The position numbers were made by a program, and so were the translations under genes. A model generated the notes under the pieces. That model was given only the letters and a program-made list of their open reading frames with translations. It made no database searches and was not told where the DNA came from. 64,000 nucleotides of DNA from an uncultured Clostridium sp. Lineage in GTDB: Bacteria > Bacillota > Clostridia > TANB77 > CAG-508. Positions 57,692 to 57,805 of this stretch are shown here, in pieces. The DNA lies in contig CAOKPI010000001.1 of assembly GCA_948470605.1 (NCBI GenBank), positions 6,466-70,465 of the forward strand. The letters run 5' to 3'. Positions within the stretch are counted from its first letter, which is position 1; each line of letters starts with the position of its first letter.

Positions 57692-57805
57692 TTAAACAGT
57701 TCCACTTCCATGACCATCTCCACGTGGTGGTTCAGTAGCGCTTGCTGTCACACTATCAGCAGATGTCATTGGTACAATAGTAAGAGCTTTATCTAAATCT
57801 GTCAT
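57692..57805 (-). CDS. 37-aa candidate RiPP precursor peptide (below the ORF-track cutoff)
   Basis: Own translation MTDLDKALTIVPMTSADSVTASATEPPRGDGHGSGTV. AGGAGG lies 8 nt before the ATG, with a consensus promoter upstream and a hairpin downstream. Confidence 0.6.
   Translation of the reverse strand: MTDLDKALTIVPMTSADSVTASATEPPRGDGHGSGTV

Follow-up and report, generated by a model that had tools for sequence, protein, structure and literature searches.

The window analysed here is a 64-kb stretch of DNA from an uncultured Clostridium, and its minus strand carries at 57692..57805 a small ORF of 37 codons plus a stop, with the translation MTDLDKALTIVPMTSADSVTASATEPPRGDGHGSGTV. A sequence-only reading of the same DNA had singled out this ORF, and its position and translation are as given there. 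The peptide opens with a leader-like motif (residues 1-13, MTDLDKALTIVPM), continues with a segment rich in Ser, Thr and Ala (residues 14-24) and ends in an allele-specific tail (residues 25-37, EPPRGDGHGSGTV). There is no aromatic residue at all in the peptide, and its Ser and Thr residues add up to ten (4 S, 6 T), one fewer than the eleven first counted. The GC content is 42% in the ORF versus 21-22% in the two spacers beside it, in line with the local rise described before. The description of the ORF as untracked holds for a 60-aa ORF cutoff but not for the public gene calls: identical ORF DNA is present in six independent public assemblies, each of which lists a 37-aa gene there.

The ORF had also been said to be framed by promoter, ribosome-binding and terminator signals, and all three are found on the minus strand. 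The sigma-70 promoter of the small gene (57844..57872) consists of TTGACA, a 17-nt spacer and a TG-extended TATAAT with 12/12 matches, a full score that just one other site in the 5.5 kb scanned attains. The Shine-Dalgarno sequence AGGAGG lies at 57814..57819, with the ATG 8 nt downstream, and the stop codon stands 22 nt before an intrinsic terminator or attenuator hairpin at 57634..57670 (GAGATAGAG...CTCTGTCTC, 12 bp followed by a T-run); comparison of the spacer with Rfam matched no family or known RNA. Further along the same strand, a second, weaker promoter-like element (57579..57607; TAGACA-17-TAAAAT, 10/12 matches) precedes the enzyme genes, and we infer from its sequence that it acts as their promoter. 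A terminator-like hairpin at 53566..53588 (minus strand) ends the five-gene cassette, and neither the peptide nor the enzymes recur elsewhere in the 64-kb window.

On the upstream side, the gene for a 744-aa repeat-rich surface protein ends in its own strong terminator (58060..58030), so that the small ORF heads a separate transcription unit. This secreted or surface protein (58072..60306, minus strand) has a long (T/A)VPT tandem repeat, which shows up as a local GC maximum of 48-51% (about 59300-59750), together with InlB B-repeat/Flg_new domains. Public assemblies with an identical cassette carry a 739-aa version of it, so the repeat number probably varies. Elsewhere the window has origin-type gene content (19930..41977), with mnmG/gidA at 19930..21810, gyrB at 31015..32943 and gyrA at 39512..41977; the interval of about 6.5 kb between gyrB and gyrA holds a TraG/VirB4-like P-loop ATPase (34358..35980) and a ParA-like ATPase (35940..37343). 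Conjugation/T4SS-like genes occupy 1691..18000 and 45748..47433, and include a 1195-aa M23 peptidase plus lysozyme protein (3061..6648), a TraG P-loop ATPase (10599..12539), small pilin-like membrane proteins (14778..15520) and a coupling-protein-like ATPase (45748..47433). From these genes, a conjugative element seems to be integrated close to the origin.

Downstream of the small ORF, and on the same strand, are four genes, which together with it form a cassette of the order A-K-B-D-N. These letters are those of the linear polyphosphorylated peptides (LPPs), a class described by Popov et al. (Nat Commun 2026, PMC13381572), whose clusters encode a precursor (LppA), an HprK-like protein (LppK), a discrete RRE (LppB), a SpI/SipW-like leader peptidase (LppS), an MsbA-like exporter (LppD) and an NTP_transf_5 enzyme (LppN, whose class is taken from Supplementary Data 2 of that paper). 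We recovered the type cluster of Paenibacillus alginolyticus DSM5050 via the LppB sequence of PDB 9x8z; it has the order A-K-B-S-D-N, with a precursor of 72 aa, and is followed by a paeninodin-like lasso cluster.

The first of the four genes (56813..57532, minus strand) encodes a 239-aa protein with a P-loop, SADCGIGKST, and an LNDDK motif. This protein had no match at E ≤ 0.01 in the local Pfam and NCBIfam copies, and none in the PDB, either as a single sequence or as a profile. With its AlphaFold model (pLDDT 73), Foldseek placed the HprK/P structures 1kkl, 3tqf, 2qmh and 1knx on top (E 7e-7 to 1e-5). PEP carboxykinases, which have the same fold as HPr kinase/phosphorylase, rank after them. 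The protein was placed only by this fold comparison and by weak NCBIfam matches, namely ScmC in 14/14 family members and HprK_rel_A in 12/14, all of them below the curated cutoffs. The precomputed label PF27840 (ScmC) is carried by both the window kinase and LppK, whereas the lasso kinase PbaK is labelled Hpr_kinase_C (PF07475). In blastp the window protein aligns with LppK at 25% identity over 164 aa (E 7e-9), and with PbaK only in the P-loop region. The 239-aa protein is thus predicted, from sequence and model, to be an HprK-fold kinase of the LppK type, in agreement with the earlier view that the small ORF lies upstream of an HprK-like gene.

The second gene (56557..56823, minus strand) encodes a discrete RiPP recognition element of the PqqD family, LppB/B1-like and 88 aa long (Pfam PqqD, 2e-12). 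A profile of 23 PqqD homologues retrieved TbiB1 (9.5e-7), LppB (9x8z, 1.6e-5), PbaB1 (9x90, 2.9e-5) and TfuB1, that is, exactly the solved lasso/LPP recognition elements, and in blastp the window protein is about equally distant from LppB (E 2.8e-6) and from the lasso B1 protein PbaB1 (E 6e-6). The third gene (54848..56527, minus strand) encodes a 559-aa MsbA-like, LppD-like ABC exporter with no peptidase domain, which is 29% identical to LppD over 502 aa (E 1e-57). The last one (53725..54861, minus strand) encodes a 378-aa NTP_transf_5 nucleotidyltransferase of the LppN/PsmN kind (Pfam PF14907, 1e-44), with 25% identity to LppN over 195 aa (E 9e-9). As K, B, D and N are homologous and collinear in the two systems, the window cassette corresponds to lppA-K-B-D-N minus S.

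A scan with one genome per species found homologues of the 239-aa protein at 80 loci, from uncultured Clostridium, Acutalibacteraceae, Oscillospiraceae and one Acholeplasma. A small ORF was counted if it was 25-90 aa long, preceded by a Shine-Dalgarno sequence, and ended at most 400 nt upstream of the kinase gene, and such an ORF was present just upstream of the kinase gene in 49 of the 56 homologous loci with a PqqD gene. A search for conserved small ORFs upstream of homologous genes had been suggested together with the first description of the ORF, and its outcome is therefore positive. Among the 21 loci with no detected PqqD, an LPP-like peptide ORF was seen solely in two truncated loci, L049 and L079. 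Kinase homologues with no PqqD or precursor detected nearby by blastp are found in L020-L028, L041, L042 (Acholeplasma laidlawii), L048, L053 and L057, and likewise in L068 and L073-L080, where the kinase is inside a fusion protein of about 375-380 aa; a SpI-like ORF lies immediately 3' of the kinase in L021 and L023, and a GHL10 glycosyl-hydrolase-like gene in L042. The kinase family is thus wider than the RiPP cassettes.

The length of the ORF does not by itself argue for a gene, since an ATG-initiated ORF of at least 37 aa arises in 38% of mononucleotide shuffles of the 539-nt spacer. Length alone is thus within chance and would suit a fortuitous ORF in a 5' UTR or spacer; the case for a gene rests on signals and conservation. 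The -35, the spacer, the -10 and an upstream TTTTACATAAAT box are kept in 12 allelic loci despite the divergence of the ORF, the Shine-Dalgarno sequence is kept as (A)GGAGGT in 12/12 close loci, and so is aATAGACAA...TATATAGTAAAAT of the second promoter-like element. The terminator hairpin is kept in 10 loci, with one-sided G-U to G-C changes and one pair preserved although both of its sides changed. The TTTTACATAAAT box itself (57873..57890, minus strand), which is directly 5' of the -35 hexamer and present in 12/12 allelic loci, could serve as an UP element or as a binding site for a regulator.

The coding sequence carries a clear signature of its own. Between the type-1 alleles L001 and L005, codons 3-16 differ by 6 non-synonymous and 0 synonymous changes, while from codon 23 on there are 5 synonymous and 0 non-synonymous ones, and for the type-2 alleles L002 and L013 the counts are 7 synonymous and 4 non-synonymous. 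Every indel that separates the window from L087, or L089 from L091, is a multiple of three in length, so that the frame is kept, and in six distinct type-1 peptides REDNYGSGDLD is invariant while the N-terminus varies. No family was found in the local Pfam and NCBIfam for the window peptide nor for nine related peptides, and a peptide-profile search with the 41-aa allele as first sequence retrieved 11 close relatives only. The conserved promoter, ribosome-binding site and terminator, the homologous ORFs in dozens of loci, the in-frame indels, the pattern of synonymous substitutions and the jump in GC content effectively refute a chance ORF, and comparison of the sequences indicates that the 37-codon ORF is a real, conserved gene.

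A conserved small ORF followed by a conserved terminator hairpin and then by an operon could also be a regulatory upstream ORF, whose translation controls read-through of the hairpin into the enzyme genes and whose peptide has no function in itself. However, the hairpin lies outside the footprint of a ribosome terminating at the stop codon, and the kinase gene has its own conserved promoter-like element. In addition, the tail is under purifying selection at the amino-acid level and its types co-vary with the kinase and RRE alleles, which is unexpected for an attenuator peptide, and the ORF co-occurs with PqqD genes in distant lineages. We consider this regulatory role very improbable.

The alleles of the peptide agree with the proposal that its N-terminal half resembles a leader. 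The closest alleles have in common an N-terminal LDxA[LI]xxVPM, which reads MTDLDKALTIVPM in the window, MKQTNLDRALSVVPM in L087, METKLDAIIVPM in L089 and MATNYDELDALIIPM in type 2, and their C-termini are variable. This motif is followed by a Ser/Thr/Ala-rich stretch and then by an allele-specific, acidic and Gly-rich tail, of which there are about ten types among the close alleles, for example ...PPRGDGHGSGTV, ...PPREDGHGSGSV, ...SGRGDGSQSGGFGKPNQP, ...PSREDNYGSGDLD, ...SPIENTTTNNVGGF, ...SPIENTTTDVDTGI, ...LIDTDDGNSGF and ...GRGDEYDGNDLELP. The C-terminal residue is V, D, F, I or P. None of the Ser residues keeps its position throughout the alleles; a Ser two or three residues past the 'PM' is common among them, and corresponds to S15 in the window.

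In most close alleles the tail opens with an R-G/E-D tripeptide (residues 28-30 in the window, nt 57716..57724, minus strand), which is RGD in the window, L089, L091 and L003, and RED in L087 and type 1. This tripeptide may be a processing or modification mark. An integrin-type role of RGD was left as unsupported speculation, as RGD is seen in only some 4 out of 10 allele types, the remainder having RED or neither.

The allelic variation extends beyond the peptide. L001 and the window locus share their chromosomal position, the VanW flank being 95% identical, and the nucleotide identity between the two is 90-99% in the ABC and NTP genes versus 56-87% upstream of about 56,540. The minima are in the peptide ORF, in kinase codons ~26-75 and in the C-terminal half of PqqD, and the promoter region is about 80-86% identical across alleles. 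Similarly, dS between the window and L001 is 0.98-1.4 in the kinase and PqqD genes and about 0.15 in the ABC and NTP genes, and dN/dS is below 0.4 everywhere. We rejected positive selection as the origin of the A-K-B divergence on the basis of these dN/dS values and of a dS that is near saturation; the two together point to old functional alternative alleles moved by recombination. A sharp recombination breakpoint is seen at window position 56540, the PqqD/ABC junction, and the ABC gene is 90-99% identical to that of L004 too, which has a second break inside the NTP gene, near window position 54450. Peptide, kinase and RRE are thus an old, divergent allelic module in an otherwise near-identical locus, a pattern suggestive of strain-specific specificity types.

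Such an intraspecific polymorphism, in which A-K-B are divergent (dS about 1) and D-N and the flanks near-identical, also recalls specificity groups as in agr or comQXP, and the modified peptide might be a strain-specific, pherotype-like signal for quorum or kin recognition, and neither an antimicrobial nor a component of the matrix. This would be a rival account of the function and not of the biosynthesis. The small, acidic and hydrophilic core, which is unlike that of membrane-active bacteriocins, and the lack of an immunity gene in the cassette would both fit a signal. However, neither the cassette nor its immediate flanks encode a receptor (histidine kinase, RRNPP regulator) or any other sensor or regulator, the neighbours being the surface protein, a P-type ATPase/ArsR pair and a VanW-like protein. 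Moreover, diversification driven by conflict fits the same pattern, and a history of gain and loss of the biological-conflict type was inferred by the authors of the LPP work (PMC13381572). A signal of this kind seems to us unlikely, if less so than a regulatory upstream ORF.

In our view, the small ORF is probably a genuine precursor gene of an LPP-type RiPP, and LppA-like. If so, its strong dedicated promoter and a leaky terminator hairpin would keep the precursor mRNA above the enzyme mRNA. By analogy with the LPPs, paeninodin and pseudomycoidin, the PqqD-type RRE would bind the N-terminal motif LDxA[LI]xxVPM, a binding that we assume, as the window peptide has no [Y/W]xxP, and would present the peptide to the HprK-fold kinase. 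The kinase would then put one or several phosphates, possibly iteratively, on a Ser, the candidates being S15 or S18 just past the VPM, or S34 in the tail. In the LPPs, LppK places up to four phosphates on the core Ser+3 (PMC13381572), and this precedent lends support to the idea of the sequence-only reading that the Ser/Thr-rich peptide is a kinase target; LppK does not, however, accept Thr (PMC13381572). The NTP_transf_5 enzyme may add a further group to the phosphate, such as a hexose, as PsmN, an enzyme of the same type, does in pseudomycoidin (PMC8498205), and the MsbA-like ABC pump would export the product. With no SpI-type leader peptidase in the cassette, the peptide would either leave the cell with its N-terminal part still attached or be cut by an enzyme whose gene lies elsewhere. 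No cyclase was found in the window, which is consistent with a linear product.

More tentatively, and with low confidence in the picture as a whole, the cassette could represent a peptidase-independent LPP branch, in which the precursor, kinase residues 26-75 and the C-terminal half of the RRE are an exchangeable specificity module, maintained as ancient alleles in one gut Clostridium species. These alleles would specify strain-specific phosphopeptides, several of them with R-G/E-D, for kin discrimination, signalling or inter-strain conflict, and the leader code would be LDxALxxVPM instead of the [Y/W]xxP of lasso and LPP RREs.

LPPs were described as recently as 2026 (PMC13381572), and the window locus would be a related pathway in mouse-gut Clostridia. 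The LPPs were discovered by a SpI peptidase search of NCBI proteins, with detailed genome mapping in Bacilli, and their precursors were found by the motif Px9Fx[T/A] (PMC13381572). With no SpI and neither YxxP nor Px9Fx[T/A], the window locus would be missed by a SpI-based search; it is also an example of the RiPP precursors that are lost with a 60-aa ORF cutoff. In addition, the locus offers a natural allelic series, with at least ten peptide types and co-varying kinase/RRE segments in an otherwise constant background, which could serve to map leader-RRE-kinase specificity and to probe the role of the phosphopeptide.

Among known systems, lasso peptides too have a comparable set of genes. In paeninodin and pseudomycoidin, which are Bacillota lasso peptides bearing phosphate or phosphoglycosyl groups, an HprK-homologous kinase acts on the linear precursor (PMC8498205), and literature queries on HprK-related kinases by name retrieved lasso-peptide papers only. 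The window cassette has in common with their clusters an HprK-type kinase, an NTP_transf_5 protein, a B1-type RRE and an ABC exporter; in contrast, it has no cyclase C or B2 protease, and its kinase is of the ScmC/LppK type and not of the Hpr_kinase_C type. The small ORF could in principle encode a lasso-peptide precursor of a split cluster, with the cyclase and B2 protease elsewhere and the kinase and nucleotidyltransferase as tailoring enzymes. Indeed, the RRE is of the lasso type, with TbiB1 as best profile match, the combination of kinase, NTP_transf_5 and ABC proteins is typical of paeninodin-like clusters (PMC8498205), and one formal parse can be made in the window peptide, T20-A21 | S22...D30. 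However, the cassette, about 20 syntenic loci and the 10 largest of the remaining ORFs in the window all lack an Asn-synthase-like cyclase and a transglutaminase-like B2, whereas both adjoin the lpp genes in the P. alginolyticus cluster. The kinase sides with LppK (PF27840, 164-aa alignment) and not with PbaK (PF07475, P-loop only), and the spacing of the T(-2)/ring parse is not kept in other alleles. Furthermore, the target of the lasso kinases is a C-terminal Ser (PMC8498205), which cannot be the case here because of the residues in which the alleles end. A lasso precursor is therefore a highly doubtful reading, and an LPP-type precursor the preferred one.

Outside the LPP and lasso systems, the closest curated families of the 239-aa protein are ScmC and HprK-related kinase A (NCBIfam TIGR04249 and TIGR04352), both of which are PqqD-associated. 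Unlike SynChlorMet ScmC, the window protein scores far below the curated cutoffs, and the radical-SAM partner genes are absent.

Homologues of the window kinase, with 40-50% identity, are found in SpI-containing cassettes of the more distant Acutalibacteraceae and Oscillospiraceae loci (for example L035, L045 and L033). As in the window, there is a PqqD gene, an ABC exporter and an upstream small acidic precursor, but the order is A-K-D-B-S and the leaders are canonical YxxPxL ones (MKxYxKPELxVExFDVEDVITxS); an NTP_transf_5 homologue was undetected in them by blastp. These A-K-D-B-S loci have the look of ordinary relatives of the LPPs. In the SpI-containing relatives L036 (4490..4835), L072 and L076 (4555..4870 in both), two precursor ORFs stand in tandem and differ in their cores, and within sub-clades the cores have conserved C-terminal tags such as ...GNEF, ...DEF, ...DLIIG and ...GEWY.

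In the LPP pathway itself LppS cuts after T-1, for which the RRE LppB is required, and LppN was silent in the heterologous host (PMC13381572). In both systems the precursor gene is first and the K, B, D and N homologues follow in the order lppK-lppB-lppD-lppN, and in both a macrolactam cyclase is absent from the cassette. The precursors are alike in having a conserved N-terminus and a hypervariable, Gly-rich and hydrophilic C-terminus, although in sequence the window peptide shows no resemblance to LppA, and a PDB search for an LppA-like leader chain gave nothing. The window precursor is also much shorter (37 versus 72 aa), and its tail, of some 13-24 aa, compares with a core of 45 aa in LppA.

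The leaders differ as well. That of the LPPs has the motif YxxPxVLxHQxIxFETxxS, in which Y and P are essential for RRE binding (PMC13381572), whereas the window leader has neither YxxP nor Px9Fx[T/A], and no Y or W; its only Pro is P12, with no Fx[T/A] at the +10 spacing. In sister alleles the Tyr is retained and a Leu is found instead of the Pro (YDELDAL). Unlike the LPP clusters, the window cassette has no SpI/SipW-like LppS: tblastn with seven SpI-like proteins found nothing in clade-1 loci at E ≤ 1e-2, and in the 64-kb window gave only chance-level matches, the best of which (E 0.023) falls in a region devoid of peptidase-like ORFs; the gap between the PqqD and ABC genes is 29 nt. The host, a gut Clostridium, is outside the Bacilli, and the cassette is outside any capsule locus and has no adjacent lasso cluster. 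Identity of the enzymes to the Lpp proteins is 25-29% only, and about 25% for K and N, which counts against an LPP assignment, as do the absence of YxxP, of a fixed Ser, of LppS and of similarity to LppA, and the fact that LppK does not take Thr. As the SpI peptidase and the leader motif proved absent on testing, the cassette is, judging by its genes, best filed not as a strict LPP member but as a Clostridial variant of the LPP systems without the peptidase.
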